A DNA stretch of 64,000 bases, from the NCBI GenBank assembly GCA_009692515.1, contig SHZA01000003.1, positions 11,966-75,965 on the forward strand. Reading direction: 5' to 3'. The DNA comes from Bdellovibrionales bacterium (GTDB taxonomy: Bacteria > Bdellovibrionota > FAC87 > UBA2466). The notes below the pieces were generated by a model. That model had not been told where the DNA came from, searched no databases, and worked only from the letters and a program-made list of their open reading frames with translations. The position numbers and the translations under genes were made by a program. Every line of letters begins with the position of its first letter. The stretch's first letter is position 1. Below, in pieces: positions 1 through 59,303 of the stretch.

Positions 1-28
1 ACTAGCTAAAAGTTTTGAAAAGGCGGGC

Positions 29-637
29 ATGAGTGAAAAAATTGGAAGTATCGTCGTGGAAATTAAAAAGATAGCACAGGCTAATAAAAGAGTGGCTCCA
101 ACAGGACAAGCAGCGTTTTATTTGGGCGCAAGCTATTTTAAAGAGGTTGATAAAGAAAGAAAGAAATACGATGCCATCAAACTTAGATTTCCTGAAGCCG
201 ATCTTTTGGCTTTAATGAAGAAAAAGTTGAAGGTGCTAAGTAAGCTATCGAAAACTTATGATGACGAAATTGAAAGAGGGGTTCCCGAGTGGGGAATCGC
301 AGCACTATATGAAAAAAGTACCGCTTATGAAACCTATGTTTCACAGTTTCGTAGTCTAAAGATCCCATCTCGATATAAACCAGAGGAAAAAATAGAGGCA
401 GAGGCGGGATTAAAACAAATTAATACTACACAGATTGCTCCCTTAGAAAAGAAGGCCCAGGAAATTCTAACTGTGTGTGCCGAGAGAGCTTCTCAGTTTC
501 ATGTGATTACCGATTATGCGAAAAAATGTCGAGACAAAGCTAAGAAAATCGAAGGACAGTTTGAGCCGACTGGGATCAGTCCTCAACCTTCTTATTGGAG
601 TACTAAGGGTCCGAAGGAAGAGAGTGTTAACGAATGA
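29..637 (+). CDS. Hypothetical protein (possibly 5'-truncated by window edge; reading frame stays open back to base 2)
   Basis: ORF track; 4-bp ATGA overlap with downstream TPR lipoprotein gene suggests co-operonic; no recognisable catalytic motifs. Confidence 0.35.
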   Translation: MSEKIGSIVVEIKKIAQANKRVAPTGQAAFYLGASYFKEVDKERKKYDAIKLRFPEADLLALMKKKLKVLSKLSKTYDDEIERGVPEWGIAALYEKSTAYETYVSQFRSLKIPSRYKPEEKIEAEAGLKQINTTQIAPLEKKAQEILTVCAERASQFHVITDYAKKCRDKAKKIEGQFEPTGISPQPSYWSTKGPKEESVNE

Positions 638-1500
638 AGCAATTTATAACTATAGCAGCCACTGGGGTTATCGTTTCTTTTCTTGGATGTGCATCACTGA
701 ATCAAACGGAGGCCAAAAGCAAAACATATGAATACCTGGCTTGGTTTGATCATGGATCCGAGGGTGAGTTTGATCCCTATCGAAAAATACTATCCGAAAA
801 GATAGATGAAGTTGATGGCGAGGTTGTGGATCCTACAAAGCTAGATAAGTATCTAGACTATCTTACAGTTCTTGATAGCAATATTAAAAAGCCAGGAACA
901 GAACAAAAGATAAAAGATTTTGTAAGTAAAAATCCAGAAGAAAAGCGTGGCCTATTTGTTCTGGGAGTTCATTACATGAGGTATCAAAAGAAGGAGTTAG
1001 CGAACTATTTTTTTACTTTACTTGAAAAAGATCCCAATTTTAGGTGGAGGTCACTTCTATATAACAATTTGGGAATGTTGAGCTTACAGGAAAAAGATCG
1101 AGATAAAGCGATGAACTATTTTACAAAGGCTATCGCAGCAGAGCCCGCTATTGCGGCGCCTAGAGTGAATCTAGGGGCTCTTTATTTACAAAGTAAAAGT
1201 TATGCAGAGGCACAGCCCTTATTTAGAAAGGCCTTAGACATCGATGGCGATTTTGAGGATGCCGTTCTGGGACTCGGAGTCTGCTTGGAGTCGCAGGGTA
1301 AATTTGCTGAAGCGCATCAACTCTATTCTACGTTTATCGATAGCCACACCCAAAAGGTGGCGGTTCTTTATAATGATGCCTTAATTTTGGCCAAGCATCT
1401 TGGGAAACGTGAGGAGGCATCGGAAATAATGCTTCGTTACATTCAACGCGGTGGAAAAGAGGCATCAAAAGCTCATGAAATGATTCAGGGATGGCGATAA
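634..1500 (+). CDS. TPR-repeat lipoprotein (GltE/AgmO-like position in a Glt-like cluster)
   Basis: N-terminal signal peptide with lipobox-like 'FLGCAS'; C-terminal half has tandem TPR-like helices (…NNLGMLSLQEKDRDKAMNYFTKAIAAEP…NLGALYLQSKSYAEAQPLFRKALDIDGDFEDA…). Confidence 0.55.
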   Translation: MKQFITIAATGVIVSFLGCASLNQTEAKSKTYEYLAWFDHGSEGEFDPYRKILSEKIDEVDGEVVDPTKLDKYLDYLTVLDSNIKKPGTEQKIKDFVSKNPEEKRGLFVLGVHYMRYQKKELANYFFTLLEKDPNFRWRSLLYNNLGMLSLQEKDRDKAMNYFTKAIAAEPAIAAPRVNLGALYLQSKSYAEAQPLFRKALDIDGDFEDAVLGLGVCLESQGKFAEAHQLYSTFIDSHTQKVAVLYNDALILAKHLGKREEASEIMLRYIQRGGKEASKAHEMIQGWR

Positions 1501-1574
1501 AGATAATGCTGATCTCTAAGAATTTTTAGATGCTAAGTGTCTTTTTTAGGGATTGAACTTGAAAGTGAAAGGTT

Positions 1575-1934
1575 ATGAAAAATAGATTAACAAACTTCAT
1601 ATTAATAATTTTTGTTTTTTCGGTTTTTCAATTTACTGTTCACGCTAAAACTAAAAAATCAATTCCTCGAGTGCCTCCAAAGGAGACTGTGAGCTCTGCT
1701 CCTGGAAAACGTGACGAGGGTGATTTTGTGGTGGAAAAAAGATCCGATGGAACCACAGTGAAATATAAAAAGAAAACTAGCTATGATTTTGAAGGAGCCA
1801 ATATTGATGGTTTATATAACAAACCTTCTGGCTCTTATATTTCAAATATAAAAGATGTTAAAGGAAAAAGTATTATTAGGATCAGAGAAAATTTTGATGC
1901 TGAAGTCATAGACTCAGCAAGGCTCATAAAATAA
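1575..1934 (+). CDS. Small secreted protein (signal peptide; GltF-like position)
   Basis: Hydrophobic N-terminus MKNRLTNFILIIFVFSVFQFTVHA; stop 8 bp before start of FHA gene. Confidence 0.4.
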   Translation: MKNRLTNFILIIFVFSVFQFTVHAKTKKSIPRVPPKETVSSAPGKRDEGDFVVEKRSDGTTVKYKKKTSYDFEGANIDGLYNKPSGSYISNIKDVKGKSIIRIRENFDAEVIDSARLIK

Positions 1935-1942
1935 GAGGCAAC

Positions 1943-4153
1943 ATGGAATCAAAACAACAGAACTTAGCCGGTTCAGGAATTCGTCTCGACGTCTTAGGTA
2001 AAGATGGCGTAGTGATTCATACTGGGGAATTTATCAAAGATAAGATCGTGATGGGAAGAATCCTATCCGCTGATTTAAGAATTGATGATCCTAGGGTTTC
2101 GAGAATTCACGCATTGATCGAAATTAGAAATGAAGAGATCATTCTTACCGATCTAGCTTCAAGCCATGGCACATTTTTAAATAGCAAAAAAGTGGTCGAA
2201 TCCAAATTGAAGTTTGGAGACATTATTCGCTTGGGTTTTGTAGAATTGAAGGTAACGAAAGGCTCAGGACAAGCTAGCGCACCAACCGCTTCCAAATTTG
2301 ATGCTGAAGACGTGACTAATAATGATGCCACTCTGGTAGATATTGAAAGAGATGAGTTTGATACCAATCGAAGAGATAAGGACCGAAGAAAAAAGGATGC
2401 TTTTCCAACCGAAAAACGCCTTGAGGAAAGGCGTCAAGGAGATCGACGAATTGAGCAGCGAAAAGAGGATCGTCGAAAAGAGGGAACCAGTGAAGCCGAT
2501 AAAGTAATTTCGGAAAGAAGAGAGGATGACGATCGTAGAAAAGATTTGCCTAGAGAAAGAAGAGGCGGTGAACGTAGGCAAAGTGAGCGCCGAGTATTTG
2601 ATATTACGAGTTTAGAAAGACGCATCGATGATCGTAGAGATAGAAAGTCTGATGACGATATTTTACCCGAAGAATTAGAAAAAGCATTTGAATCTCCATC
2701 CCATGCGAGAGAAATTGAAGTGACTGCATTATGGGGAGATCACATCCTTGATATCTCTAATTATAATAACGAGTGTGTCCTAAACATTGGTGAAAGCCCT
2801 CGTAATGACTATATCATTCCCAGTGTAGGTATCCCCGATGAATTTCCCTTATTAACTATCCAAGAGGATGGGACTAGTCAGTTAGCTTTTACGGAAGAAA
2901 TGTCTGGAACCATACGTGCTCGTGACAAAATATATTCAATAAAGGATTTACGTAATGAAAAGTTTGTTCGTAAAGAGGGCGATCATTATGTGATGGGTTT
3001 AAAGCAGGACGATTTTGCAAAAATCGCTGTGGGCACGGTCAGTTTTTTTATTCTTTATGTAAAGCCAGCACCTCGAATTTTACGGCCACCTTTCTTTGAA
3101 CAAGATGCATTATTAATGAGAACAACTGTAGGATCGGTGCTTCTTTTCTTAGCCTTAATGATAGGGCTTTCTTTTGTTCCTAAGCCTATTCCAGTAACCA
3201 TCGAACAGGTGCCTGAGAGATTTGCTAAAATTGTAATTAAAAAGAGACCCGACATTTCAAAAATGGGTTTAATTGCAAAAGGAGAAGAGTCTAAAGAGGG
3301 GGGGTCGGTGGCGGGTGAAGGGGGGCCAGCGATCGGTCCTGAAGGAGAAGCGGGTAGAAAAGATCTTCCTAGAAAAGAGGAAAAGGCGCAAACTATTTTA
3401 CCTAAATCAAAACCGAAAGCAAATACGACGCCGTCACCTGTAGCAACTAAAACAGCGACTCCTGCAAAAACTAAAGTACCAGAGAAAAAATCGATTAAGA
3501 GCGTGGGATTATTAAAAGCAATGTCTAATGGAGCCATTCAAAAAGAGTTTAACAATCTTATCAATGCGGGTGAAGGACCTGAGGGCCCAGGTGGCTTTGA
3601 TGAATTTGGAAAAGCCATTCGCGGAGCCAGAGGAAAAAGTCTTGAAGAGACTGGTGGTGCAGGTGGAATGGGGTTGAAGGGTGTGGATGCTGGCGGTGGT
3701 GGAAAAACTGTGGGAATCGATGGGCCATCAACTAAAGGATTGGGTCGTGGATATCATGGCGACGGCATCGGCGAGGGCATTTCTGGTCCCGGAAGATTTG
3801 GTCTTAAAGGGGAACATGCTATTAGTATTGTGTCAGAAAATATTCAAGTTCTCTCAGGACTTTCTAAAGATCTTATCAATGCCGTCGTCCAACGTCACCG
3901 AGCTGAAATTAGAGCCTGTTATGATTCTGCATTACAAAGAAACCCCAAGCTTAGTGGAAAAGTGGTGATGTTTTTTAACATTCAATCCAATGGGATCGTT
4001 TCCACGGTGGGAATTAAAGAAAGTACAATCGGAGACGCGGGACTTGAAAGTTGTATTGGAAGTAGGATTAAGAGCTGGGTATTTCCCAAACCAGAAGCGC
4101 CTGTGGTTACAGAGGTTGCAGCGTATCCATTTTACTTAAATCCTGCGAACTAA
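1943..4153 (+). CDS. FHA-domain inner-membrane protein with C-terminal TonB-C/AgmX-PglI-like domain (GltG/PglI-like)
   Basis: N-terminal FHA signature (GR…RVSRIHALIE…ILTDLASSHGTFLN); Arg/Asp/Glu-rich repeat linker; one TM helix; Pro/Lys then Gly-rich periplasmic region; C-terminal …AEIRACYDSALQRNPKLSGKVVMFFNIQSNGIV…ESCIGSRIKSWVFPKP resembling TonB-C-like AgmX/PglI C-terminal domain. Confidence 0.7.
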   Translation: MESKQQNLAGSGIRLDVLGKDGVVIHTGEFIKDKIVMGRILSADLRIDDPRVSRIHALIEIRNEEIILTDLASSHGTFLNSKKVVESKLKFGDIIRLGFVELKVTKGSGQASAPTASKFDAEDVTNNDATLVDIERDEFDTNRRDKDRRKKDAFPTEKRLEERRQGDRRIEQRKEDRRKEGTSEADKVISERREDDDRRKDLPRERRGGERRQSERRVFDITSLERRIDDRRDRKSDDDILPEELEKAFESPSHAREIEVTALWGDHILDISNYNNECVLNIGESPRNDYIIPSVGIPDEFPLLTIQEDGTSQLAFTEEMSGTIRARDKIYSIKDLRNEKFVRKEGDHYVMGLKQDDFAKIAVGTVSFFILYVKPAPRILRPPFFEQDALLMRTTVGSVLLFLALMIGLSFVPKPIPVTIEQVPERFAKIVIKKRPDISKMGLIAKGEESKEGGSVAGEGGPAIGPEGEAGRKDLPRKEEKAQTILPKSKPKANTTPSPVATKTATPAKTKVPEKKSIKSVGLLKAMSNGAIQKEFNNLINAGEGPEGPGGFDEFGKAIRGARGKSLEETGGAGGMGLKGVDAGGGGKTVGIDGPSTKGLGRGYHGDGIGEGISGPGRFGLKGEHAISIVSENIQVLSGLSKDLINAVVQRHRAEIRACYDSALQRNPKLSGKVVMFFNIQSNGIVSTVGIKESTIGDAGLESCIGSRIKSWVFPKPEAPVVTEVAAYPFYLNPAN

Positions 4154-5886
4154 ATTCCAAGCCAGGTTACTAATCTATCAAATAGACTGGGTCCTCTAGA
4201 GTTAGGGTCCCGTTTTTTAGCTAGTGCTACCGAAGTCAAAGATTTTTTTGAATCTACTAGGGTGGTTTGCGCCACAAGAAGCTTCGGAATCTCTTCATTC
4301 GATAGACCCATCGGGTCGCTTGCTTCTCTTAGCTCCTCTAAAATTTTAGTAAGTTCGTCGGTTTTGACTGGAGCTTCTAAAGTAGGTACGGTTTTAAAAT
4401 CGTTTATCTCAATAGAGGCTATTTCTCTATCAGTATAAGGTTCTTCACGAGAAAAGGTTCCATCATTATTATAGTAATAAGCTATCGGTTTATTTGACAC
4501 CGAGTTTGATGAAGAGGGATCATAGTTTGATGGAGAGGAATCATAGCTAGTAGGTGGTGCAGTGCTGAATGAGTCACTCTTTAATGCGGAAGCACTCGTA
4601 TATTGAACTTGGACGTTAGGTGCGTTTGGATCTTGTTCTCGCATACTAAAACCGAGGTCAGAGTTAGCTCCCCATTTTTTATCAGGGGTAGCAGGCAAAG
4701 ATTGTTCAATGGCAGAGGGTTTAGCCGGGTTATCAATATTGGGGGCAGTAGCCGAAGGTGGTGCCAAACTATAAAAATTACTTGTGGAGCTACTTGAATT
4801 TGTTGCCTTAGCCTCAGCAGTACTTGCAATTTTAGGCAGGTTGTTACTGGTTACAGAGCTCGGTTTAAAACTTATATTATCTGAAGTTGCTGATCCAGAA
4901 GTATTGTTTTTACTATCGAAGTTACCTTTAGAATCACTGAAGTCATTTGAAGTCGAATCCAGATTTTCTTTATTGGCCAAATTATTAGGTGGAGTGTGGG
5001 AACTATTGTTTGTATCGGTGAGCGCCGCATAGTCATTTGTTTTAAATTTGTTATCAGGAGCTACTAAAGGTGTAGCATTTGTAACGGGGCCAGGATTTCC
5101 AATTAATTCCTCAGATAGATCCACAAAATTCTCAAGCGGAGCACTAGGTTTCTCAGATAGGGAATCTTGATTATAAGCAGAGGACGGAATGGAATTCAAA
5201 TTTGATTCGGATCCTTTTTGCTTTGAGTTCAGTTCTTTTTCTAATTTGGCTAATTGGCCTAATGTTTCTTTGTACTGTTCTGCCAATTTTATTCCGAAAG
5301 GATCACTCGACTCCACATGATTTAAAATAGAGTCTCTTAAGTTTCTAATTTGTTCATTTAATGCGGTTATTTCTTGAGAGGTATGGTTTCTAGTCCTAAC
5401 CCGCTTAGTAAGGGTAACGGTCTCCTTTTCGGTCTCTACTGTTTGGGTGTGTTCTGAAATAGCGGTTTCTATTTTTTCTTTCAATAATGTTTTCTCTTTT
5501 GATTTCCACTGGAATGGCTGTTGGTTGAGCTCTTCGAGTTGCTTCTTTAAGCTATCAATGACGACTTTTATTTTCGAATCAGACTCCTTTTTAGCGTTGT
5601 CATAGGTTGATTGTATTTCAGTAGACGGGTGAGAATCGTTGTTGGAATTAGGAACAGTCGGTTTCTGAGGATATGTATTATCAAGGCTTTTTAAATTCGT
5701 TAGGTTGTCTGTAATCGCTTTTAAAAGATTAGGATAAACTCTAATTGTGGAATCGGGCAAAGTCTGCTTTGGACTGCTACTTTGATTCCCCTCGTGACTA
5801 GCTAAACCGATGGTGGGTATTAATAATCTGCCACCTATTAAATAGAACAGTGTGGCCTTGCCGAATAGATGTTTGAGATTTCTCAT
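4150..5886 (-). CDS. Secreted Ser/Asn/Thr-rich low-complexity protein with N-terminal coiled-coil region
   Basis: Signal peptide-like N-terminus; coiled-coil heptads (…KKQLEELNQQPFQWKSKEKTLLKEKIETAI…); long S/N/T/P low-complexity tract; convergent with and abutting the FHA gene. Confidence 0.45.
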   Translation of the reverse strand: MRNLKHLFGKATLFYLIGGRLLIPTIGLASHEGNQSSSPKQTLPDSTIRVYPNLLKAITDNLTNLKSLDNTYPQKPTVPNSNNDSHPSTEIQSTYDNAKKESDSKIKVVIDSLKKQLEELNQQPFQWKSKEKTLLKEKIETAISEHTQTVETEKETVTLTKRVRTRNHTSQEITALNEQIRNLRDSILNHVESSDPFGIKLAEQYKETLGQLAKLEKELNSKQKGSESNLNSIPSSAYNQDSLSEKPSAPLENFVDLSEELIGNPGPVTNATPLVAPDNKFKTNDYAALTDTNNSSHTPPNNLANKENLDSTSNDFSDSKGNFDSKNNTSGSATSDNISFKPSSVTSNNLPKIASTAEAKATNSSSSTSNFYSLAPPSATAPNIDNPAKPSAIEQSLPATPDKKWGANSDLGFSMREQDPNAPNVQVQYTSASALKSDSFSTAPPTSYDSSPSNYDPSSSNSVSNKPIAYYYNNDGTFSREEPYTDREIASIEINDFKTVPTLEAPVKTDELTKILEELREASDPMGLSNEEIPKLLVAQTTLVDSKKSLTSVALAKKRDPNSRGPSLFDRLVTWLGI

Positions 5887-5896
5887 GATTTAATTA

Positions 5897-5977
5897 CCCC
5901 GTATTCTTTTATAAACTGCAAATAAAGGGCCCATAAAATAACTATGGGTTAACGCATTGTTTTATAAAAGAATAGGG
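5897..5977. promoter_or_regulatory. Perfect 14-bp inverted repeat (TATTCTTTTATAAA … TTTATAAAAGAATA) with 45-bp spacer containing a nested GCCCAT/ATGGGT hairpin, in the 5' region of the minus-strand gene 4150..5886
   Basis: Read directly from sequence: arms at 5902-5915 and 5961-5974, each flanked by CCC/GGG. Confidence 0.5.
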
Positions 5978-6265
5978 TGTATTCAGCCTGAGAGCGGTCG
6001 AATTTAAGTACTTAACGGCAGCTAACCCTTCCAATTATGTCAAAAAAAAAGCACTTTTTCTGTGGGTGATTACAAAAGCTATACACTCACTTCAAAAACA
6101 ATTAAGTATCTTAAATAACAAGTAATTTTAAGTTACCCACGTGTATTCTAATGGTGTACTCTCTAATGTTTTTTCATCTTAAGATCGAGTGACTTGCCAG
6201 AATAAAGAAAAACCATTAGGGTTGGCCGTCTTAAAGATATCGAAAGATAAGGTCTTTAAAAAGAT

Positions 6266-6342
6266 GCGGGACTAGCTCAGTTGGCTAGAGCGCAACCTTG
6301 CCAAGGTTGAGGTCGCGGGTTCGAGCCCCGTGTCCCGCTCCA
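6266..6342 (+). tRNA. tRNA-Gly (anticodon GCC)
   Basis: Cloverleaf readable by eye: acceptor GCGGGAC/GTCCCGC, D-arm AGCTCAGTTGGCTAGAGC, anticodon stem CAACC/GGTTG with loop TTGCCAA, T-arm GCGGGTTCGAGCCCCGT, 3' CCA encoded. Confidence 0.9.
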
Positions 6343-6360
6343 ATTTTAAAAAAACCAATC

Positions 6361-7077
6361 ATGTTAAAAGACCTTAAAAGCTCAGATCAAACTCACACTA
6401 AAGTGGTCATACGTGAAGTACTTGCGGGTCTGGGTTCTCTTCTTCTATTTCCCTTTGGCATAAAAAACTCAAAAAAAAGAACGGCTCGATTGGCAGAGCA
6501 ACGAAGTGTTGTGTTTGTTCATGGATATATTGGAAACAGGTCCTCTTTTCTTCCTCTTTTTGCCTATCTTCGAGTGGTGGGAGTGAAACAAATACTCTCC
6601 TTTAATTACCCTCCAAATAGTGGCGTAGATGAAGCCGCGATGGCCCTTCGAGACTTTTTAAAAGCAAAGGTACGTGGAGGGCGCATTGATCTTGTATGCC
6701 ATAGTTTAGGAGGGGTGATTGCTCGCGTTTATTTGCAGGAGCTAGGAGGCTCTAGGCGAGTTGATCGTTGCATTACTTTGGGCACTCCTCATCAGGGAAC
6801 CTACAATGCCTATTGGATTCCTTCTAGTGTAGGACGAGATCTACGGCCCGATTCTACGTTGATTGAAAGACTTGAAAGGTCTCGAAATAAAGCTGCAAAG
6901 GTAAAATTCACCTCAATCGTAGCCGATTCTGACAACATTATTCTCCCAAGGATATTTGCAGTGAATGGTGAGGATGTCATTCACATTCCAAATGTGGGTC
7001 ACCTAGGGATGCTTTTTTCCATAGAGGTATTTCGCGTAGTGGCTGAACGATTACTAAGTAAAGAAATTAAAAAATGA
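6361..7077 (+). CDS. Alpha/beta-hydrolase, lipase/esterase-like (GHSxG nucleophile elbow)
   Basis: Motif VCHSLGGVIARVY; later HIPNVGHLGM; ORF-track start at 6298 overlaps the tRNA, so the in-frame ATG at 6361 is the likelier start. Confidence 0.6.
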   Translation: MLKDLKSSDQTHTKVVIREVLAGLGSLLLFPFGIKNSKKRTARLAEQRSVVFVHGYIGNRSSFLPLFAYLRVVGVKQILSFNYPPNSGVDEAAMALRDFLKAKVRGGRIDLVCHSLGGVIARVYLQELGGSRRVDRCITLGTPHQGTYNAYWIPSSVGRDLRPDSTLIERLERSRNKAAKVKFTSIVADSDNIILPRIFAVNGEDVIHIPNVGHLGMLFSIEVFRVVAERLLSKEIKK

Positions 7078-14154: not shown

Positions 14155-15039
14155 ATGATTATTGCTTTACTTAGTATTGGAGTCACAGGAGGGACTGCCT
14201 TCTACTTATCATGGAATCTATTCTCCGGGGCTCTAGAGGATGCGGCAGCGGGCCGATTGGAACAGGATCAGAAAACCGCTAGTACTGGATTACTAAAACT
14301 GACCCGCCCTTTATTTAAAGCGTTGGTAATGCCGTATTCTCAAAAACTAAAACTTGAAGATTGGAAAAAGAACAATAAACGCAGAATAGTTTCTGCTGGA
14401 TTAGAAGATGCTTTGGATGTGAATGAGCTTCTGGCCTTTAAAATTTTCATGGGAATTGTAGTTCCAATTTCGATTTATACCTATTTTTTGATTACAGGAA
14501 GCCCAATTCCAATTTGGCTTATGGGTGCCATGATGCTTATTGGTTTTGTATATCCAAGTCTGATGGTCTCAAGTGCTAGAAAAAACAGACACGAAGAAAT
14601 AAAATTACAGTTACCATTTGTTATTGATCTTTTAACTTTATCAACTGAGGCGGGACTAGATTTTATTGGAGCCCTACAGAAGGTGGTTGAAAAAACTCGC
14701 TCTGGTCCACTGGTACAAGAGATTGAAAGAATGCTTCAGGAAATTCGCTTGGGGACTACGAGAGCAGATTCGATGCGAGCCATGTCATGGCGAATTGATC
14801 TTCAAGAAACCTCTTCATTAATTGCGGTATTAGTCACAGCAGACCAAATGGGTGCTAGCTTAGGTGATGTTCTTAGAGTGCAATCGGACTTAATTCGAAC
14901 TCAACGATTTACCAGTGCAGAAAAAAAAGGAGCAGCGGCCACACAGAAACTCCTTTTCCCACTCATCTTTTTTATTATGCCTGCGGTGTTCATTATGATA
15001 TTTGGGCCGGTAATTTTAGGATTTTTTGGAGCTAAATAA
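14155..15039 (+). CDS. tadC: Tad/Flp pilus assembly protein TadC-like (type II secretion system F domain)
   Basis: T2SS-F domain signature …QLPFVIDLLTLSTEAGLDFIGALQKV…; three TM segments; RBS GGGGGAGAG upstream. Confidence 0.7.
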   Translation: MIIALLSIGVTGGTAFYLSWNLFSGALEDAAAGRLEQDQKTASTGLLKLTRPLFKALVMPYSQKLKLEDWKKNNKRRIVSAGLEDALDVNELLAFKIFMGIVVPISIYTYFLITGSPIPIWLMGAMMLIGFVYPSLMVSSARKNRHEEIKLQLPFVIDLLTLSTEAGLDFIGALQKVVEKTRSGPLVQEIERMLQEIRLGTTRADSMRAMSWRIDLQETSSLIAVLVTADQMGASLGDVLRVQSDLIRTQRFTSAEKKGAAATQKLLFPLIFFIMPAVFIMIFGPVILGFFGAK

Positions 15040-15392
15040 TGCATGGAAGTATATTGAAAAAAGGGGATCAAATTCTTGTGACAAAGGTGAGAATTGCTAA
15101 AACTTTTTTTGAAAGATTCTCAGGCTTGATGGGAAAAAAAGAAATAACTATTGAAGATGTTTTAATTTTTCCAAAATGCAACTCAGTCCACACTTTTTTC
15201 ATGCGAACAAGCATTGATGTGATTTTCGTATCAGCTCAAGGAGTCGTGACTCAGGTTTTTAGTAATCTTAACCCATGGAGACTATTGTTGCCTCAGAAAA
15301 AAGCTGCACATTGTATCGAGATGCCGTGTGAACTGGCCAGTAAACTGAGAATCTCTATTGGTGATTCCTTAAGTTGTGAAGGAGTTTTTTAG
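15039..15392 (+). CDS. DUF192 (COG1430) domain protein
   Basis: …ARTFFERFSGLMGKKEI…LIFPKCNSVHTFFMRTSIDVIFVS… DUF192 pattern; 1-nt TAATG overlap with tadC. Confidence 0.55.
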   Translation: MHGSILKKGDQILVTKVRIAKTFFERFSGLMGKKEITIEDVLIFPKCNSVHTFFMRTSIDVIFVSAQGVVTQVFSNLNPWRLLLPQKKAAHCIEMPCELASKLRISIGDSLSCEGVF

Positions 15393-17039
15393 TTGAAGTT
15401 TGAAATATCATATAACGGTAAAGTAGTGATCTCAAAAGATCTGCCCGATGGCTCTTATAAAATAGGAAGAGCCCAGGATTGCAGTATTGTTTTGAATTCA
15501 AATAAGGTTTCTAAATATCATGCCCTTCTTATCGTAAAAGGAAATCGGGCTGCGATTTTAGATACAGACTCTTCTAACGGAGTTTTTGTAAATGGAATTC
15601 TGATTAAGAAACAACTTTTAAATACATCCGATAAAATTGAAATGGGTGAACACACCTTTTCAATGGAATCTGGAGCTACTCCACGCAGGAAGATAGAATT
15701 ATTTTCCACAGATGGGTCTGCAGCATTTGCAGCAAAACCTGGCGAAACCCCAGAAAGCTCACCAGATTACTTATTGAATTCTTCATTTGAAGTAGCTCCC
15801 GAAATACCGGTGAACAAACTGGAACAACTTATGAATTTAGTGGATGGTAAAATATTATTTCCATTTTTTGAGTTGGTAAAAGTAATGGATTATCGTTTTT
15901 TAATGGCCATGATCTTAGTAACCACTATTGGGATCTCAGCCTTCTTTAGTGCCATTCCTGTTCTTAGTTGGGGGAGAAATATTACAAAACAGGAATCCTT
16001 AAAGAGAGGCCAAGCCATCCTTAAACAGGTAGTCCGCGAGAACTATAGAATTCTTAGTAAGACCAATGACACCTCATTATTAACTGTGGCTGCAGCTGAA
16101 AGTGATAAGGACATGTTAGAGGTTTATATCCTAGACGCAAAGACTAAGAGTGTACTAGCGCCCACTAAATACCTTGGTAAATCTATTAATGACCCTTATA
16201 TGTTGTTAGCCTTGGGCGATTTAATAGATGATGGAAAATTAGATGCCACCAAAGACAGAGGAAATGGAACCTTTGTTATTGCTCAAAGTATTCCCTATTA
16301 CGGTTCTAAAGACAGTGCTTTATTTTCCGCTGAAAATCCTGAGGACCCTGGGACTCCAACTACTATTGTAATGGCCTACTTTAAGATTCCACAAAGTATT
16401 AATGGCATTTATGAACCCCTTGCCGTTGCCGGATTAGTATCCTTTCTCCTAGCCCTGGTTTCTTTTTTCCTTTTACATAAAATGATTAGCCAGCCCATTA
16501 AAGAGTTACATGACCAGTTAGATGCCGCTCTTAAGGGTGAAAATATTCAGATGGTCTGCAATGCGAAATTTCCAGAACTTGAAGCATTAACTACGGTAAT
16601 TAATTTCTCAGTTACTAAAATGAAAAGTGTGAGTGGGGGCATGGCAGCTGTTCCTGCGGGAATTCCTGGTGGCATCGATGCCGACAATGAGGAGATGATC
16701 TATTTAAAATCTGTCGAAGAGTTCTGTCTAGGATCAACTGATGGCATTTTGGTTTTGGATAGTAGTAAAAAGGTAAAATATGTGGGCCCTATTTTAGGGG
16801 ATTTACTGGGACTCAGACCACAATATGCTCTAGGGCAAAATATAGGAGATGCGTGTCGAGATGGGTCATTCTCAGGCACTGTAATCGACATGTGCGAGCG
16901 GGTAGTTTCTTCTATAGGAGAAACACAGACCGCCTCATTAGATATTAATGGCGTGCCAAGAAATCTCACAGCAGTGAGCCATCGTTTATCAAACGGTGAA
17001 ATTTCCTTTATACTTATTACGGTGAAAATGAATGCCTAA
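15393..17039 (+). CDS. FHA-domain membrane protein with periplasmic domain and HAMP-like segment (TTG start)
   Basis: N-terminal FHA (YKIGRAQDCSIVLNSNKVSKYHALLIVKGNRAAILDTDSSNGVFVNG); two TM helices flanking a ~150-aa periplasmic region; HAMP-like amphipathic segment after TM2; no recognisable output domain. Confidence 0.6.
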   Translation: MKFEISYNGKVVISKDLPDGSYKIGRAQDCSIVLNSNKVSKYHALLIVKGNRAAILDTDSSNGVFVNGILIKKQLLNTSDKIEMGEHTFSMESGATPRRKIELFSTDGSAAFAAKPGETPESSPDYLLNSSFEVAPEIPVNKLEQLMNLVDGKILFPFFELVKVMDYRFLMAMILVTTIGISAFFSAIPVLSWGRNITKQESLKRGQAILKQVVRENYRILSKTNDTSLLTVAAAESDKDMLEVYILDAKTKSVLAPTKYLGKSINDPYMLLALGDLIDDGKLDATKDRGNGTFVIAQSIPYYGSKDSALFSAENPEDPGTPTTIVMAYFKIPQSINGIYEPLAVAGLVSFLLALVSFFLLHKMISQPIKELHDQLDAALKGENIQMVCNAKFPELEALTTVINFSVTKMKSVSGGMAAVPAGIPGGIDADNEEMIYLKSVEEFCLGSTDGILVLDSSKKVKYVGPILGDLLGLRPQYALGQNIGDACRDGSFSGTVIDMCERVVSSIGETQTASLDINGVPRNLTAVSHRLSNGEISFILITVKMNA

Positions 17040-18054
17040 TCCTTTAGACATAAGAGCCACTTCAGACGCCGCTCCCTTATTGGAGCAGATAGCAGGCGCC
17101 GGCAGAGGACGTGTCTTTGAATTAACGATCGATAAGGTAAGTCTTGGGCGAGAAGATAGTAATGATATTATAATTAGTGATGAGTCGGTATCCAGGGTCC
17201 ACGCGAAAATAGAACGAAATTCTCAGGGTACTTTTTTTATCTCTGATAACAATAGTAAAAATGGTGTGATTGTAAATGGTCTAAAGACTGAACATGTTTC
17301 TTTGAACCACGCTGATATTATTCAACTCGGGCATTTTGTGTTTAGATTCCGCATTCCAGGACAGAGTTCTTCTCAAATCAAAATACCTATCGGGGGCCAT
17401 TTAGACTTAGTGATGGAAAATTCTACTGGGTTGAAGCCTGAAGGAAATCGAAAACGGCTTTATCTGTGGTTGGGACTAATAGCTTTTATTGCAATTGCAA
17501 TAATTATTAATAATCAGGACTCGAGTCCCCCTGCAGAGATAGATACGCTTGAAAATTCACAGCAGGAAAAATTCAAGCCATCACCTATTCCTAACCTGGA
17601 GACAGAATCTGCAATTGGCATCATTGGTTTAGAGGATCCTTTAGCGGAAACAGAAAATGATTTGAAGAAAAAGGAAGGCACGGAAAACTCCTTGAAGGAG
17701 GCAGAAATTTCTTTTCGAAAAGGGCAGAGGGATTACTTTAACAAAAACTATCATCACGCAATTGACAATTTCGAAGCAGCCCTTTCAATTTCTAATCGCC
17801 ACCCTTTGGCCGGCTATTATAAGGGGCTTGCTATTCATGATTCAGAGGTTGAGGCAGAAAAAAATAGGGACATGGGTTTGAAGTATTATAATTCTTTGCA
17901 ATATAGTCGAGCCATCTATCATTTTAAAAATGCCATTGAGTTTCTTGCTCATACTACCGCAGATAATAAAACGGCAAATAAAATAATTCAAGAGTGTGAA
18001 AGGTATATTGGTTTCTCGAATCGTAAACAGCAAGCAGCAGAGGTGGTCCCATGA
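17032..18054 (+). CDS. FHA-domain membrane protein with C-terminal TPR-like region
   Basis: FHA (LGREDSNDIIISDESVSRVHAKIERNSQGTFFISDNNSKNGVIVNG); one TM; 8-bp overlap with upstream gene. Confidence 0.6.
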   Translation: MPNPLDIRATSDAAPLLEQIAGAGRGRVFELTIDKVSLGREDSNDIIISDESVSRVHAKIERNSQGTFFISDNNSKNGVIVNGLKTEHVSLNHADIIQLGHFVFRFRIPGQSSSQIKIPIGGHLDLVMENSTGLKPEGNRKRLYLWLGLIAFIAIAIIINNQDSSPPAEIDTLENSQQEKFKPSPIPNLETESAIGIIGLEDPLAETENDLKKKEGTENSLKEAEISFRKGQRDYFNKNYHHAIDNFEAALSISNRHPLAGYYKGLAIHDSEVEAEKNRDMGLKYYNSLQYSRAIYHFKNAIEFLAHTTADNKTANKIIQECERYIGFSNRKQQAAEVVP

Positions 18055-20249
18055 GGATCACCGTAAAACTTTTCGATAGTAATATTTTAGTTTTAACAAA
18101 GCTTTTCGATGTGGGAAGTTTTCGAGTAGGTAAGTCTGAGTTTTCTGACATTGTTTTGCCGGACGAAAGTGTGAGTCGAAGTGCTTTGGAAATAAGAGTT
18201 ACGGAGGAGAGTGTATATGTCACTAACATGGGCGGCTCTGGACTACTAAAAATTGATGGTAAAAAACGCGAAACGGGTCAGTTGAAAGATGGGTCTACTA
18301 TTGAGGTTTCAAAATTTAAATTAGTAATATTTCTAAGCGCAGAAGAGCTAGCATCTTCCAATTCGAAACAAATAAAACCCATAGACGCTGTGGAAAAAAA
18401 TCCAGAAAATATTGAAGAACCGCAACCGGAAGACTATCCAGCAGCCGGATTATTCCCAGCTCCTCCTGAGGCTGAAGGCAATGATGATCAGTCTAACGAG
18501 GAAAATAATGATTTTCAGGGGGATAAATACCAAAATCAGAATGACGAGGGAGAACAGGTTTTTGAATTTCCTGATCCAGCCATCGCAAAACAGCCACCGA
18601 GTAGTTCCTTTATTGAGGGGAATTTAGCACTTAAGGAGCGAACAGAAACTTTAGCGGAGTCAAAACCCTTAATCGCCAAAATTATGTTTATAGCGGGCCC
18701 TCGCGCCGGAGAAGAGATTTCACTTCAGTCTTTCGAGCTCAGTTTTGGAAGAAGTCGAAAAGCTGATGTCATGTTGAATGATGATAAATTATCACGAGTT
18801 CACGCCAAAATTATTCGTTTCGGAACGGGGTATCGAGTTCTTGACCTTAACAGTCGTAATGGAACCTGTGTCAACGGAGTCAGAATTCTTGAACATCCCC
18901 TAAGTAGTTATGATGTGATTGAATTTGGGAGTACTAAAATTAAATTCCTGATTCATGATCTGCTATTACATGAGGTAGGCAATGCCACTGGATTAATACC
19001 CGTGCAAACGGCGGGCAAAGAATCAACAAAATCGTTGTACTTGGATTCAGATGAACGATTGGAATTAAGTAAACTTAGAAAATCGAGCAGTGGATCTCCT
19101 CCTGTTGCTATCGAAGAGGAAAGGGATGACGAGTTTTTTGTTGAGCCAGAACCCAAGAAAAGGTCGATAGTAAGGCTTGTTCTTGTAATAGTAATAACCA
19201 TAGGGCTAGTCTTGTGGTGGATGAATTTATCCAATGGGAAGCCAAAAGAGGCAAACCCAATCGCAACAACCAAATCGGCTACAGCGATCACCGATAAAAA
19301 TAATGTGGTGCCAAGAATTCCCAAAGATTTTGCTGAACTCACCGACGAAATGAAGCGCAAGATTGAAGGGGCTTATATTAATGCAAGTAGCGTTTCTCAA
19401 AGAGCAGATTTAACACTAGAAGATATTGAAAAGACGCGAGAGGATTTAAGAAGAATTCATCAGTCTCTTCCCTATTATAAAAACTCAAGAGAATTGCTAG
19501 AACAATTAGATAAGAGGTATCGCGATAAATCTTCACAATTAGCCGCTGAGAAAGCAAAACAAGATGAGGTTCAGGATCTAAATATTTATCTAGAAGATGG
19601 AATCGAATATCTTAAACAAGGGGAATTTGAAAGAGCTGCCGAGTCGTTTCAGTTGGCTTTAAATTTAGACCCAAGAAATTTGGTAGCAGCAAAGGGCTTT
19701 AAAGCAGCTGAACTTAAAGTAAAAGATTTAGAAAACCTCCCACCGGATAGTGATCCTGAGGAGGAAAAAAAATATCTTATCAAGCAACTTTATGAAAAAG
19801 CGCTCACAGCTTTAGGTAATCGGGGGTATCAAGAGGCGATAGATTTAGCTGAGCAGATTCGGAAGATAAACTTGAAATCGGATCAAACCTATTTGAATGA
19901 GGCAAAACAAATAATTGATAGAGCCAAAATTGCTCAGAAAGAGGAGTTTGAACCCTTCCTAATTCAGGCCAAAGAGAAGTTTGCAGAGGGTGATTATAAT
20001 GCCACTCGTGATCTATGTGAAGAAATGCTAAAGCGAGATCCGGCCTATGAAGATGCCAAAGAGTTGCTATTAAAATCTAAGAAACAACTGAGTCGCCTTG
20101 CCAAAGAGGCTTATATCCATGGTTATATTTTAGAAAGTATTGGTCAGATTGAACAGGCGAAACAGTATTGGAATCGAGCTAAAAATTACGTTCGTTCGGG
20201 CGATGAATATTTTGATAAAGTGAATAAAAAACTAGATCAGTATCAATAG
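18051..20249 (+). CDS. Tandem-FHA membrane protein with acidic linker and C-terminal TPR/coiled-coil periplasmic region
   Basis: Degenerate N-terminal FHA-like region; second canonical FHA (FGRSRKADVMLNDDKLSRVHAKIIRFGTGYRVLDLNSRNGTCVNG); TM helix ~aa 370-392; ATGA overlap with upstream gene. Confidence 0.6.
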   Translation: MRITVKLFDSNILVLTKLFDVGSFRVGKSEFSDIVLPDESVSRSALEIRVTEESVYVTNMGGSGLLKIDGKKRETGQLKDGSTIEVSKFKLVIFLSAEELASSNSKQIKPIDAVEKNPENIEEPQPEDYPAAGLFPAPPEAEGNDDQSNEENNDFQGDKYQNQNDEGEQVFEFPDPAIAKQPPSSSFIEGNLALKERTETLAESKPLIAKIMFIAGPRAGEEISLQSFELSFGRSRKADVMLNDDKLSRVHAKIIRFGTGYRVLDLNSRNGTCVNGVRILEHPLSSYDVIEFGSTKIKFLIHDLLLHEVGNATGLIPVQTAGKESTKSLYLDSDERLELSKLRKSSSGSPPVAIEEERDDEFFVEPEPKKRSIVRLVLVIVITIGLVLWWMNLSNGKPKEANPIATTKSATAITDKNNVVPRIPKDFAELTDEMKRKIEGAYINASSVSQRADLTLEDIEKTREDLRRIHQSLPYYKNSRELLEQLDKRYRDKSSQLAAEKAKQDEVQDLNIYLEDGIEYLKQGEFERAAESFQLALNLDPRNLVAAKGFKAAELKVKDLENLPPDSDPEEEKKYLIKQLYEKALTALGNRGYQEAIDLAEQIRKINLKSDQTYLNEAKQIIDRAKIAQKEEFEPFLIQAKEKFAEGDYNATRDLCEEMLKRDPAYEDAKELLLKSKKQLSRLAKEAYIHGYILESIGQIEQAKQYWNRAKNYVRSGDEYFDKVNKKLDQYQ

Positions 20250-56375: not shown

Positions 56376-57929
56376 TTGGAATTTATCATTATGAGATTTA
56401 CAGTTTTTGACATGATAGTACGACTAGTAGGGGTGCTTTCTTTTTTGACCTTGATGAGTTGTGGGAGATTAGTCACCGAATGCGGTGGGACTCCACTTAA
56501 TATCTCTCATCTAACCCAAATTCAACGAGCCGCCTTTACTTCAAACACCAAAGCCTCTCTTGTTATTCCGAATCCTCTGGATGCTACAGGAAATATTGGT
56601 ATTCAGTCTATGGACTCTTCTTTAATAAATGCTTTGAGTGACCTTTTTCTTCCTAACCTATCTGCAGGAAGCCGTCTGGAGAATAATTTTTTAAAGGTTA
56701 GAATTAACTCGATTAATGATTCTCCTGAAATTTTAGCGACTCCAAATTCAAATGGGCAATATGCGTTTCCGATCACCGACATCCATTACGGAGAAACCAT
56801 GGCCTACCATAGTATGAATGCGATCCAGACCTATGTGGAGGCACTGGGATTTCAAACCAATAAAGCCCGTCCACTTTTTGTTATGGTAAATGCTACTGGC
56901 TCGACAAATAACCCTGAAGAGGTAAATGCTTTTTATAGTCATAATTACTTCGATACTACAGCGCCAAGAACGCTAAAAATATATGGAGACACCGCCTTTT
57001 CGCCCAGACAAGACCGAGATATCTACTGGCATGAGTTTGGCCATTATTTATTAGAGAGTTTAACTTCTGATAGAGGGGTTGATTTTGCGGGGGATTCGGG
57101 ATCAATATTTTCGGAAGGTGCGGCGATCCATGAGTGTATTGCTGATTATGGAGCTGAGAGTCTGTCGGGAAGGGGATATCTTGGCAGATGGATCGCTAGA
57201 AATTTTTCAGAATTTACAGCCGGATCACCTTTGAGATCTGCAGAAGATAAAAATGATGATTTTAACAACTTCAGTAAGGTGGCCACCTTTGATTCTACGA
57301 AAAAAAATCTTAATCGCTATAGAATTGGAGAATGGTGCACCCGGGTACTCTGGGATATTCGTCGTCAAATAGTGCAGGAAAATTCGAACGAGGGGAGATT
57401 CTATGCAGATCGGATGATCTTTGCAGCCGCTTCACTTCTTAAGAGAGATACCTCTGTTACCTCATTGAAAAGCGCCCTTCTTCAGGCGGATGAACAGCTC
57501 AACTGTGGAATTCATAGTCATTCGGTAAAAAATGCTTTCGAGTCGAGGGGATTTTCATCCGATATTCCCGCTCTTGCTTTACCCTTAAAACTTAAGGCCT
57601 CTATCGTTTGGCTACGAGATGAAAGGGGACAACTAACACGAGAGTTTTCAGTTAGTTTTATTCTCACAAATCCCAATTCAGATAGAGCACGAAATGTCAG
57701 ATTAATTCTGGAGTCTACCGATGCTAGAATTTCTCCGGTGGTGTATCAGCAGTCTTATGGGGATTTGGGTTCTGGAAAAACTGTCAGCGTGGGAGGCAAT
57801 AGCTCTCTACCCATCGATTACTCTGTGGTGGGATCGGTAGCGCCCAATCAGAACTATCAAGGCGCTCCATTTAATTTGAGAATAAAAAGTGAGAATGCTC
57901 CCGATGCAATCATCCCGGGGGTCTTATGA
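56376..57929 (+). CDS. Secreted/lipoprotein zinc metallopeptidase, thermolysin-like (M4-like) catalytic core
   Basis: Signal peptide with LMSC lipobox; HEFGH (HEXXH) followed ~30 aa later by GAAIHECIADYG resembling the M4 third-ligand NEAxSD segment. Confidence 0.55.
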   Translation: MEFIIMRFTVFDMIVRLVGVLSFLTLMSCGRLVTECGGTPLNISHLTQIQRAAFTSNTKASLVIPNPLDATGNIGIQSMDSSLINALSDLFLPNLSAGSRLENNFLKVRINSINDSPEILATPNSNGQYAFPITDIHYGETMAYHSMNAIQTYVEALGFQTNKARPLFVMVNATGSTNNPEEVNAFYSHNYFDTTAPRTLKIYGDTAFSPRQDRDIYWHEFGHYLLESLTSDRGVDFAGDSGSIFSEGAAIHECIADYGAESLSGRGYLGRWIARNFSEFTAGSPLRSAEDKNDDFNNFSKVATFDSTKKNLNRYRIGEWCTRVLWDIRRQIVQENSNEGRFYADRMIFAAASLLKRDTSVTSLKSALLQADEQLNCGIHSHSVKNAFESRGFSSDIPALALPLKLKASIVWLRDERGQLTREFSVSFILTNPNSDRARNVRLILESTDARISPVVYQQSYGDLGSGKTVSVGGNSSLPIDYSVVGSVAPNQNYQGAPFNLRIKSENAPDAIIPGVL

Positions 57930-58627
57930 ATCCTAAAATAAAGAGAATTAAAATCTTCTGGGGGATGATGATAGTATTTTGCGTATTGAGTCTCTCTTTT
58001 TTCTCAGATTCCAGGGCTATCGGCATTCCATTAAAGGCCAAGAGGGTTTTTGACGGCCTAACGGGGGGGCTTATCACAAAAACCAACCTCGAACTATTTA
58101 TAGACCCACCTTTGCAAACCGCAGTGAATTTCGATGCTTTGCAGCTGGCAAATCAATTTATTATTGATAACCCGGGTCTGTTTTCCATTAAATCTTACCA
58201 TCAACTTAAGGGTGAAACTTATGAAAATCCTTTGGGAACTAGAGTGAACTATCAAGTTTTTCAAAATGGGACTCCGATTTTAGGATTTACAATTCAACTG
58301 ACGGTAGGTGTGGATCACCAAGTTTCAATTGTCTCTAATGAATATCATCCCATTGAAAGAGTAGAGATGGATGAAAGGTATTTTTTGTCGGTAAATGAGA
58401 TTTTAGAAGAGCATAATCAAAGATTTAAACTTTCAGTAGCTGACGAAGATGAAGGGCGGGAATCACATATTATTATTGTTGGTCCTAGCTACGCTAAAGC
58501 TGAGATGGGTACTGTAGTTTCAGTAATTGAAGTTGGCTCTAAGCAAAAAGCTCCGATTGAGGCGGTTTTTAGTTCGAAGAGTGGACAACTTCTAGCTCGT
58601 CGTGTGGCAAAATCGGAATTTCATTAA
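57926..58627 (+). CDS. Secreted protein overlapping the metallopeptidase gene (possible propeptide/PepSY-like partner)
   Basis: Signal peptide; ATGA overlap with upstream protease gene; beta-rich ~200-aa domain; family assignment weak. Confidence 0.35.
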   Translation: MNPKIKRIKIFWGMMIVFCVLSLSFFSDSRAIGIPLKAKRVFDGLTGGLITKTNLELFIDPPLQTAVNFDALQLANQFIIDNPGLFSIKSYHQLKGETYENPLGTRVNYQVFQNGTPILGFTIQLTVGVDHQVSIVSNEYHPIERVEMDERYFLSVNEILEEHNQRFKLSVADEDEGRESHIIIVGPSYAKAEMGTVVSVIEVGSKQKAPIEAVFSSKSGQLLARRVAKSEFH

Positions 58628-58705
58628 GTTGAACCAATCGCATCTAGTTCATGAAAAATAACAACTGAGTAAAACTAAGAAGTGGTTTCACTCAGTTGTA
58701 ATTAT

Positions 58706-59278: not shown

Positions 59279-59303
59279 GGTTTCTCCTCATAATAAACTA
59301 AAT

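Follow-up and report, generated by a model that had tools for sequence, protein, structure and literature searches.

The stretch of DNA analysed here (hereafter, the window) comprises 64,000 nt of a Bdellovibrionales bacterium (assembly GCA_009692515.1, contig SHZA01000003.1, positions 11,966-75,965, forward strand). Four genes occupy positions 2..4153 on the + strand, namely the end of a gltD-like gene followed by gltE-like, gltF/cglF-like and gltG-like genes, and all four open reading frames (ORFs) were verified at the coordinates in Table 1. The gltD-like stop and the gltE-like start overlap as ATGA, 74 nt separate the gltE-like from the gltF-like gene, and 8 nt lie ahead of the gltG-like gene, with an AAGAGG ribosome-binding site; these junctions make the four genes compatible with one operon. 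The ORFs are all intact and translationally coupled. The gene order proposed in a first-pass annotation of this DNA, i.e. a TPR lipoprotein, a signal-peptide protein of about 120 aa and an FHA/TonB-C protein, was confirmed, with products of 288, 119 and 736 aa matching models NF033758, NF033764, NF033760 and NF033768.

Table 1. Position of the genes and of the GltG-like protein domains within the window.
Feature	Coordinates	Strand	Description or basis
gltD-like, 3' end	2..637	+	last 211 of the 1034 aa of a periplasmic TPR scaffold
gltE-like	634..1500	+	288-aa TPR lipoprotein, lipobox-like ...SFLG-C19
gltF/cglF-like	1575..1934	+	119-aa secreted or periplasmic protein, predicted signal peptide
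gltG-like	1943..4153	+	736-aa bitopic inner-membrane protein, putative TolA/TonB-like force transducer
GltG-like FHA domain, N-terminal, cytoplasmic (residues 31-105)	2033..2257	+	Pfam PF00498
GltG-like highly charged cytoplasmic linker (residues ~140-235)	2360..2647	+	composition and motif scan
GltG-like central domain, directly before the TM helix (residues ~258-385)	2714..3097	+	within GltG HMM alignment
GltG-like single transmembrane helix (residues 388-420)	3104..3202	+	hydropathy
GltG-like low-complexity periplasmic linker (residues 421-639)	3203..3859	+	composition in 50-aa blocks
GltG-like C-terminal AgmX/PglI (TonB-C-like) domain (residues 640-732)	3860..4138	+	NF033768 and AF2/Foldseek

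The first reading frame continues without a stop upstream of its ATG at position 29, as far as base 2 at the window edge, so that this ATG is internal. As had been suspected, this frame is the tail of a larger GltD-like TPR protein. A Logan contig (L001) with 100% identity to window positions 1-700 lengthens the ORF to 932 aa or more, and on ENA contigs with identical proteins the gene is called as 1034 aa. A GltC-like gene precedes it, as described below for a close relative. Five to six TPR modules of the YbgF/CpoB type (TIGR02795, 103-108 bits) were found in this protein, its part within the window being a long-helix non-TPR C-terminal domain with a short disordered tail. The AF2 model of a near-identical protein (P0121, pLDDT 83.5) predicts a TPR solenoid at residues 163-880 and long non-TPR helices at 885-1033. 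This predicted layout matches the one published for M. xanthus GltD, a TPR core flanked by non-TPR helical ends (PMC11761067), and would thus count in favour of GltD identity. Profile matches were to generic YbgF/CpoB/BamD-type models only, so that the GltD-like assignment is supported by position, size, architecture and the GltD-GltE fusions described below, and not by a GltD-specific profile. Relatives of this protein carry the JGI label 'TolA-binding protein'.

At the N-terminus of the GltE-like protein, a hydrophobic segment (residues 3-23) runs into the SFLGC19 motif. Pfam TPR_1/2/8/19 models match the protein (TPR_2, E 3.4e-15), and the GltE model NF033758 aligns with residues 142-278 (model 224-360; 63.1 bits, E 2.3e-17, below the cutoff of 225) as the second-best NCBIfam match, the generic TPR model PrsT scoring slightly higher. 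[quoted passage not shown] The next product has a signal-peptide-like N-terminus (residues 1-24, ending in VHA before a K; hydrophobic segment 4-26) and matches the CglF model NF033764 over residues 55-115 (model 25-85 of 88; 51.5 bits, E 7.8e-14, below the cutoff of 90), CglF being GltF (PMC4488436). An ORF of 99-142 aa fills the same slot in contigs of relatives L002, L004, L007, L008 and L009.

The GltG-like protein, identical to NCBI entry P0001 ('MAG: FHA domain-containing protein [Bdellovibrionales bacterium]'), matches the GltG model NF033760 over residues 258-735 (model 204-648) with 271 bits and E 2.2e-80, below the cutoff of 650. Its FHA domain scores 60.3 bits against PF00498 (residues 35-98, E 2.5e-16, cutoff 20.7), and its sequence matches in the PDB are mycobacterial FHA domains. 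Eleven [D/E]RR motifs occur in the cytoplasmic linker, a pattern retained in the family consensus. Judging from the sequence alignment, the central domain may correspond to a region of M. xanthus GltG that was modelled as a second FHA domain docking on AglR (PMC11761067); comparison of the central domain with FHA1 by hhalign gave no match. Residues 388-420 form the sole hydrophobic 19-mer stretch (maximum Kyte-Doolittle 2.19), and the periplasmic linker that follows is Pro/Lys-rich, then Gly-rich, with pLDDT <50 at residues 600-623. The C-terminus had been likened to that of AgmX/PglI, and it does match the 'AgmX/PglI C-terminal domain' model NF033768, at 96.7 bits (curated cutoff 40). It contains an invariant Cys pair (C659, C704) and was modelled with a pLDDT of about 88-93. 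The best 20 Foldseek matches of this model in the PDB were all TonB-CTD, TolA-III or FusB, the lowest E being 2.2e-3 and the highest TMt 0.70 (2grx_C), i.e. the domain has a predicted TonB-C-like fold. The whole layout agrees with that of M. xanthus GltG (FHA, linker, central domain, TMH, disordered linker, TonB-C-like CTD; PMC11761067), which counts for the Glt reading.

The start of the operon, taken from the identical contig and close relatives, consists of one small OMP_myx_plus beta-barrel gene, then a GltC-like gene, then gltD. In the 97%-identical relative L002, the barrel gene scores 84.9 bits against OMP_myx_plus (above the cutoff of 60) and the GltC-like gene has a GltC match with E 3.5e-42 (145 bits, cutoff 450). 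The name of the OMP_myx_plus model refers to myxobacterial outer-membrane barrels, and we take M. xanthus GltA and GltB to be members; the operon has one such gene, not a GltA/GltB pair. The complete operon thus consists of six genes (OMP_myx_plus barrel, gltC-like, gltD-like, gltE-like, gltF/cglF-like and gltG-like), of which the window carries the 3' half to two-thirds, and this order is held in L002, L004, L007, L008 and L009, down to about 30% GltG identity. The relatives are uncultured MAGs only, one sample being labelled offshore 120-m. The operon contains no gltH, I, J or K, and no gltH-K-type genes follow gltG. Genes for aglRQS or MotA_ExbB/ExbD-type motors are absent from the 64-kb window, and in L007, L008 and L009 none lie within 10 kb of the operon. 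In M. xanthus, gltH, I, J and K are essential for gliding.

With E-values between 1e-14 and 1e-80, the HMM matches cannot plausibly be due to chance. All four Glt scores (GltG, GltE, CglF and GltC) fall below the NCBI curated equivalog cutoffs, so that these proteins are divergent family members rather than established orthologues of the M. xanthus motility proteins, and it is on this footing that we infer gliding. We give a probability of roughly 85% to the locus being a six-gene, envelope-spanning, Tol-like force-transducer operon of the Agl-Glt/Nfs family, with surface gliding as its most probable output, in an uncultured freshwater-type Bdellovibrionales lineage. The Glt interpretation advanced in the first-pass annotation is hence supported. 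Its likeness to the M. xanthus G1 cluster held for the gltD-E-F-G order (PMC3169522) but not as a G1-only arrangement: an OMP barrel and gltC, which are G2-type genes, are also present, and this makes the operon more like the contiguous nfsA-H cluster and the 'expanded core' of Bdellovibrio.

A Glt resemblance could also arise from generic domains in an unrelated Tol-Pal/TonB accessory or FHA signalling cluster, given that TPR and FHA domains are ubiquitous, that the large TPR protein matches only generic models and has relatives labelled as TolA-binding, and that the top NCBIfam match of the GltE-like protein is another TPR family. This reading is disfavoured and appears very improbable: models for GltC, GltE, CglF, GltG, the OMP and the AgmX/PglI tail match adjacent genes in canonical order, the GltG match covers 478 residues including a non-generic central domain and the TMH, and no tolQ, tolR, tolB, pal or TonB-dependent receptor gene adjoins the operon. 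That the set is smaller than in M. xanthus, with no motor nearby, would also fit a decaying remnant without function, but such decay is hardly credible with ORFs intact and coupled, GltG-like proteins conserved at 52-97% identity across >100 protein clusters, and a six-gene synteny that survives deep divergence.

Possible, if rather doubtful, is a member of the same Agl-Glt/Nfs family with an output other than motility, be it a polymer or cargo conveyor like Nfs, an ancestral core-complex role or some envelope function specific to predation. Like nfsA-H, the operon runs A/B-C-D-E-F-G in one piece, without a G1/G2 split, and paralogous Glt-like sets do serve otherwise, as Nfs does in spore-coat assembly (PMC3858216); the core complex also occurs in bacteria for which no gliding is known (PMC3169522). 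The missed equivalog cutoffs, the missing gltH-K, the single OMP and the lack of a motor nearby (window; 10 kb in relatives) point the same way, and surface gliding cannot be assumed because the relatives come solely from uncultured MAGs. Bdellovibrionota, however, are not known to make myxospores, which counts against an Nfs-like role. Moreover, gltF and the OMP_myx_plus barrel are additions tied to the step at which the core became a motility machine in the ancestor of Myxococcales and Bdellovibrionales, and Bdellovibrio glides, with an apparatus proposed as evolutionarily linked to Glt (PMC3169522). Homologous clusters in Bdellovibrio, also put forward in the first-pass annotation, are documented: gltA, gltB and gltF accompany the core gltC, D, E and G in four sets, without gltH-K (PMC3169522). 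The gliding machinery of Bdellovibrio is still described as unidentified (PMC13104615). By analogy with what was suggested for these 'expanded core' sets, surface gliding is the most probable output of the operon.

By homology with M. xanthus, a proton-driven TolQR-like motor of the AglRQS type, encoded elsewhere in the genome, would engage GltG at its single TM helix and at the cytoplasmic domain next to the membrane. The disordered Pro/Lys/Gly-rich linker would span the periplasm and peptidoglycan, allowing the TonB-C-like domain to dock on the CpoB/YbgF-like TPR scaffold GltD, whose C-terminal domain would carry GltE. GltF and GltC may connect these periplasmic parts with the outer-membrane barrel, and motor strokes would thereby reach the cell surface.

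Glt-type gene sets are already known from Myxococcus and Bdellovibrio, and in this sense the locus is fairly ordinary. With Tol-Pal (TolQ-TolR-TolA, CpoB/YbgF) it shares the logic of a bitopic inner-membrane protein whose periplasmic linker is long and whose C-terminal domain is of the TonB/TolA type, together with a TPR partner of YbgF/CpoB-like modules (TIGR02795, 100-108 bits), and the Agl motor is itself TolQR-like (PMC11761067). TolA, in contrast, lacks the cytoplasmic FHA domains of GltG, and the operon has a TPR partner of about 1000 aa, the extra components GltC, GltE, GltF and OMP barrel, and no tolB or pal.

The M. xanthus Nfs system (nfsA-H), paralogous to glt, is like the operon a single contiguous A-B-C-D-E-F-G(-H) cluster without I, J and K, but has two barrel genes and nfsH. 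Its job is spore-coat polymer transport in myxospore formation, a process not known in Bdellovibrionota. Nfs borrows the unlinked AglRQS motor through NfsG (PMC3858216).

M. xanthus Agl-Glt (G1 gltD-J, G2 gltK-B-A-C, M1 aglRQS) shares with the locus the gltD-gltE-gltF-gltG order, a similar GltG architecture, a TPR lipoprotein GltE, a small secreted GltF, a GltD scaffold of about 1000 aa or more flanked by non-TPR helices, genes of the GltC-like and OMP_myx_plus barrel types, and a motor unlinked to the transducer genes. Here, however, the OMP and gltC genes lie directly upstream of gltD in the same operon, without the G1/G2 split, and one barrel gene stands in place of gltA plus gltB. The locus also lacks gltH, I, J and K (in the published model, GltI pairs with the FHA domain of GltG), its equivalog scores are all far below cutoff, and its GltG-like protein has a cytoplasmic linker of roughly double the length, with the 11 [D/E]RR motifs.

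The 'expanded core complex' of B. bacteriovorus HD100 (four copies, e.g. Bd0828-0838; PMC3169522) belongs to the same phylum-level lineage. Both have a gltA/B-type barrel, gltC, D, E, F and G, both lack gltH, I, J and K, and in both the function is putative. Phylogeny of agl ties Bd0828-0838 to aglRQS-type genes (PMC3169522), whereas here no motor genes lie in the window, nor, in relatives, within 10 kb, and gltD and gltE are fused in many relatives of the lineage studied here.

The four plus-strand reading frames reported by the first-pass annotation at the start of the window were all found where it had placed them, and the first of them, already open at base 2, runs off the window edge, so that the ATG at position 29 is internal. 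The suspicion that this frame is the tail of a larger GltD-like TPR protein was borne out by public contigs, since a contig with 100% identity to window positions 1-700 (L001) lengthens the ORF on its upstream side to 932 aa or more, and in ENA contigs encoding proteins identical to those of the window the gltD-like gene is called at 1034 aa. Inspection of the upstream flank for a large TPR gene thus revealed a protein of 1034-1060 aa and, further upstream, genes for a GltC-like protein and an outer-membrane beta-barrel, which in a 97%-identical relative (L002) are preceded by a divergent aminotransferase gene. The GltC-like and barrel genes are also present on an ENA contig carrying the window's own proteins, where the barrel has 216 aa. 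The stop codon of gltD and the start codon of gltE share an ATGA overlap, gltE and gltF are 74 nt apart, and 8 nt containing an AAGAGG ribosome-binding site precede gltG, a spacing that indicates a single operon. Combining the flank with the window genes, the operon reads OMP-gltC-gltD-gltE-gltF-gltG, with one OMP_myx_plus gene. The six-gene order is retained in the related contig L004, in L007, a contig of 2.98 Mb whose GltG is 62% identical, and, at about 30% identity, in the distant loci L008 and L009. A promoter and terminator scan of window positions 1-6400 gave counts not above those of shuffled sequence. The observation was confirmed and its interpretation as a Glt cluster is supported, with refinements: the gltE-gltF-gltG order proposed by analogy with the M. 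xanthus G1 cluster stands, but a G1-only correspondence does not, since the barrel gene and gltC sit in the same operon.

Features of the locus and of the remaining window (window coordinates unless a contig or protein residues are indicated; P0121 is a GltD-like protein near-identical to that of the window)
Feature	Position	Strand	Size	Remarks
OMP_myx_plus beta-barrel gene	L002 1819-2517		232 aa	TIGR04565, 84.9 bits, above cutoff (60)
GltC-like gene	L002, upstream of gltD			NF033756, E 3.5e-42, 145 bits, below cutoff (450)
gltD, end	2-637	+		non-TPR C-terminal domain of the GltD-like protein
GltD-like P0121, layout	residues 24-1033 and tail			disordered 24-76; two long helices 78-151; TPR solenoid 163-880; non-TPR long helices 885-1033; disordered tail
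gltE-like	634-1500	+	288 aa	directly after gltD; many TPR Pfam matches
gltF/cglF-like	1575-1934	+	119 aa	between gltE and gltG; signal-peptide-like N-terminus
gltG-like	1943-4153	+	736 aa	NF033760, E 2.2e-80, residues 258-735 vs model 204-648
GltG FHA domain	residues 31-105
GltG charged linker	residues ~140-235 (2360-2647)			eleven [D/E]RR motifs
GltG central domain	residues ~258-385			aligned by the GltG model, positions 204 onward
GltG single TM helix	residues 388-420
GltG low-complexity linker	residues 421-639			Pro/Lys-rich, then Gly-rich
GltG C-terminal domain	residues 640-732			two invariant cysteines, C659 and C704
Convergent gene	4150-5886	-	578 aa	stop codon overlaps gltG stop; no Pfam or NCBIfam match
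tRNA-Gly(GCC) gene	6266-6342			overlaps the TTG listed mechanically as start of the following ORF
ORF after tRNA	6298-7077			238 aa on public contigs
Second FHA-rich cluster	14155-20249	+	294 aa; 117 aa; 537-548, 340 and 732 aa	T2SSF/TadC-like membrane protein; DUF192 protein; three consecutive FHA proteins, the last with two FHA domains and TPR
Five-gene run	56376-60925		about 512, 233, 190, 248 and 192 aa	adjoins hisS and aspS

The product of gltG is already in NCBI, where it is labelled simply 'FHA domain-containing protein' (P0001). Its score against the GltG equivalog model (271 bits) fell below the NCBI cutoff of 650, and judged by sequence it is a family homologue and not an equivalog by that criterion. 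The cytoplasmic FHA domain at the N-terminus was readily recognized by Pfam (PF00498, 60.3 bits vs a cutoff of 20.7, residues 35-98), and the AgmX/PglI (TonB-C-like) C-terminus attributed to this protein by the first-pass annotation held when checked against NF033768, positions 1-91 of that 92-position model aligning to residues 640-732 with 96.7 bits (cutoff 40) and E 6.4e-28. A search of the PDB with the GltG sequence returned FHA domains only, the tail having no sequence match. In an AF2 model of the last 137 residues, pLDDT was about 88-93 across the C-terminal domain, and the best 20 Foldseek matches in the PDB were all TonB-CTD, FusB or TolA-III structures (best E 2.2e-3, range 2e-3 to 0.15; TMt up to 0.70), values in the same E-value range as those reported for the tails of M. 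xanthus GltG and GltJ (PMC11761067). The modelled fold of the tail is thus TonB/TolA C-terminal-domain-like. The central domain, directly followed by the TM helix, lies where GltG proteins have a second, FHA-like domain; its alignment with the protein's own FHA profile (hhalign) gave no signal. The cytoplasmic linker between the FHA and central domains is extremely charged and approximately twice as long as that of M. xanthus, with the [D/E]RR pattern kept in the family consensus, and it might act as a stiff charged spacer or as a binding region.

The GltE-like protein has a hydrophobic N-terminus ending in a lipobox-like SFLG-C19, and its score against the GltE model NF033758 (E 2.3e-17, 63.1 bits) was under the cutoff of 225 and marginally exceeded by that of the generic TPR model PrsT (66.9 bits). 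For the GltF-like protein, the sole NCBIfam match was to CglF, which is GltF under another name (PMC4488436), with residues 55-115 aligned to positions 25-85 of the 88 in NF033764 (E 7.8e-14) and a score of 51.5 bits, under the equivalog cutoff of 90. As all equivalog cutoffs were missed, we have filed these genes as family members and stop short of calling them orthologues of the motility proteins of M. xanthus; the locus belongs, as a divergent member, to the Agl-Glt/Nfs family of transducers.

The GltD-like protein, encoded between the gltC-like and gltE-like genes, contains five to six YbgF/CpoB-like TPR modules (TIGR02795, 100-108 bits). Only generic YbgF/BamD/CpoB TPR families were found when 33 aligned GltD-like proteins were scanned with NCBIfam for a GltD/NfsD model, and no database homologue among the matches bore the name GltD or AgmU, the labels being 'tetratricopeptide repeat protein', 'TolA-binding protein' and 'cellulose synthase operon protein C'. 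The AF2 model of P0121 (pLDDT 83.5) predicts the same layout as that of M. xanthus GltD (AgmU), a central TPR region between non-TPR helical ends (PMC11761067). In the window, gltD and gltE are separate genes (2-1500) and GltE has its own lipoprotein signal, whereas in 27 of the 93 GltD-like relatives GltD carries the GltE moiety, devoid of that signal, as a fusion at its C-terminus, giving proteins of about 1245-1299 aa (P0143 and P0145, for instance). In P0143, residues 849-1055 correspond to the window gltD tail and residues 1051-1286 to GltE 55-288, with 46-47% identity. The distant loci have TPR genes of 1225-1226 aa (L008 6007-9684 and L009 5921-9601), each with a gltF-sized gene immediately downstream. 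These natural GltD-GltE fusions back a contact so far predicted by modelling only, and are useful for comparative and structural work.

No gltH, gltI, gltJ or gltK follows gltG, and the operon encodes no second AgmX protein of the GltJ type. The gltH-K-type and aglRQS genes that the first-pass annotation had proposed to look for did not turn up near the locus: neither these nor mglA or romR were detected elsewhere in the 64-kb window (Pfam lists, NCBIfam), the Pfam search including MotA_ExbB/ExbD-type motor genes (AglR/AglQ/AglS), and in L007, L008 and L009 the 10 kb around the operon contain no motor genes either. Immediately downstream, the convergent gene encodes a protein whose N-terminal third is coiled-coil-like and which has an extended stretch of low complexity rich in Ser, Asn and Pro. 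It was considered as a conserved part of the system and rejected because its counterparts are limited to close relatives (589 aa in L002 and 634 aa in L004), other genes taking its place in L007, L008 and L009.

Three further features of the window were recorded. The second FHA-rich cluster gave, beyond its FHA domains, only weak matches to pilus-related models; the cluster may form an FHA module linked to pili or to secretion, and it is unrelated to Glt apart from the FHA domain. The tRNA-Gly(GCC) gene overlaps the listed start of an ORF that public contigs call as a 238-aa alpha/beta-hydrolase with DUF7379, which places its true start downstream of the tRNA. Finally, the five-gene run beside hisS and aspS had no Pfam match, and its first two genes lacked NCBIfam matches as well.

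By homology with the M. xanthus machinery, a TolQR-like proton motor would engage the TM helix and membrane-proximal domain of GltG. In M. xanthus, binding to AglR of the AglRQS motor through the TM helix is known from two-hybrid assays for GltG (PMC3169522) and for NfsG (PMC3858216). The disordered linker of GltG would span the periplasm, and its TonB-C-like domain would dock on the CpoB-like TPR scaffold GltD, itself carrying GltE; GltF and GltC would join this periplasmic module to the outer-membrane barrel, and force would thereby reach the cell surface. Gliding would most likely be the output of the operon, in a phylum whose gliding machinery, according to a 2026 review (PMC13104615), still awaits formal identification. 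A non-motility conveyor role is a serious rival, and it has precedents both in Nfs, a paralogue of Glt in which transport of spore-coat polymer is likewise driven by AglRQS, and in the ancestral core, defined by Luciano et al. 2011 as gltC, D, E and G plus aglRQS (PMC3169522). The contiguous A-B-C-D-E-F-G(-H) arrangement of the M. xanthus nfs operon has the gene order found here (PMC3858216).

In a further proposal, a minimal, motor-unlinked, single-barrel transducer (OMP-C-D-E-F-G, with GltD and GltE separate or fused) could represent a distinct functional subtype in a widespread uncultured Bdellovibrionales lineage, serving a planktonic or predatory way of life either as a minimal gliding machine or as a Tol-like surface conveyor unconnected with motility. 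We give this proposal roughly one chance in five. The locus and its relatives come from MAGs of uncultured Bdellovibrionales or 'Deltaproteobacteria'. If the proposal is true, the natural D-E fusions would provide direct evolutionary support for the periplasmic GltD-GltE module predicted by AlphaFold. The Glt/Nfs family serves as the model of how directed movement at the bacterial surface can be driven by a proton motor of Tol-like type.

Compared with the M. xanthus Agl-Glt system, the window GltG has the same architecture as its counterpart (PMC11761067), and the motor, which here would be encoded elsewhere in the genome, is also unlinked in M. xanthus, where it lies in the M1 cluster. The two systems differ in that GltH, GltI, GltJ and GltK are essential in M. 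xanthus and missing from the operon described here, and in that the barrel pair gltA/gltB (plus gltH) is matched by one barrel gene, whose product may act alone or pair with a barrel encoded at another locus. Bdellovibrio resembles our locus in being also devoid of gltH, I, J and K (PMC3169522), and the homologous clusters that the first-pass annotation named as known there are documented as four 'expanded core' sets in B. bacteriovorus (PMC3169522). In the proposal of Luciano et al. 2011, the core gained gltA, B and F in the ancestor shared by Myxococcales and Bdellovibrionales (PMC3169522); the locus leaves their picture unchanged and adds to it a compact version of six genes, without gltH-K and with a single barrel gene, from a lineage that is uncultured.
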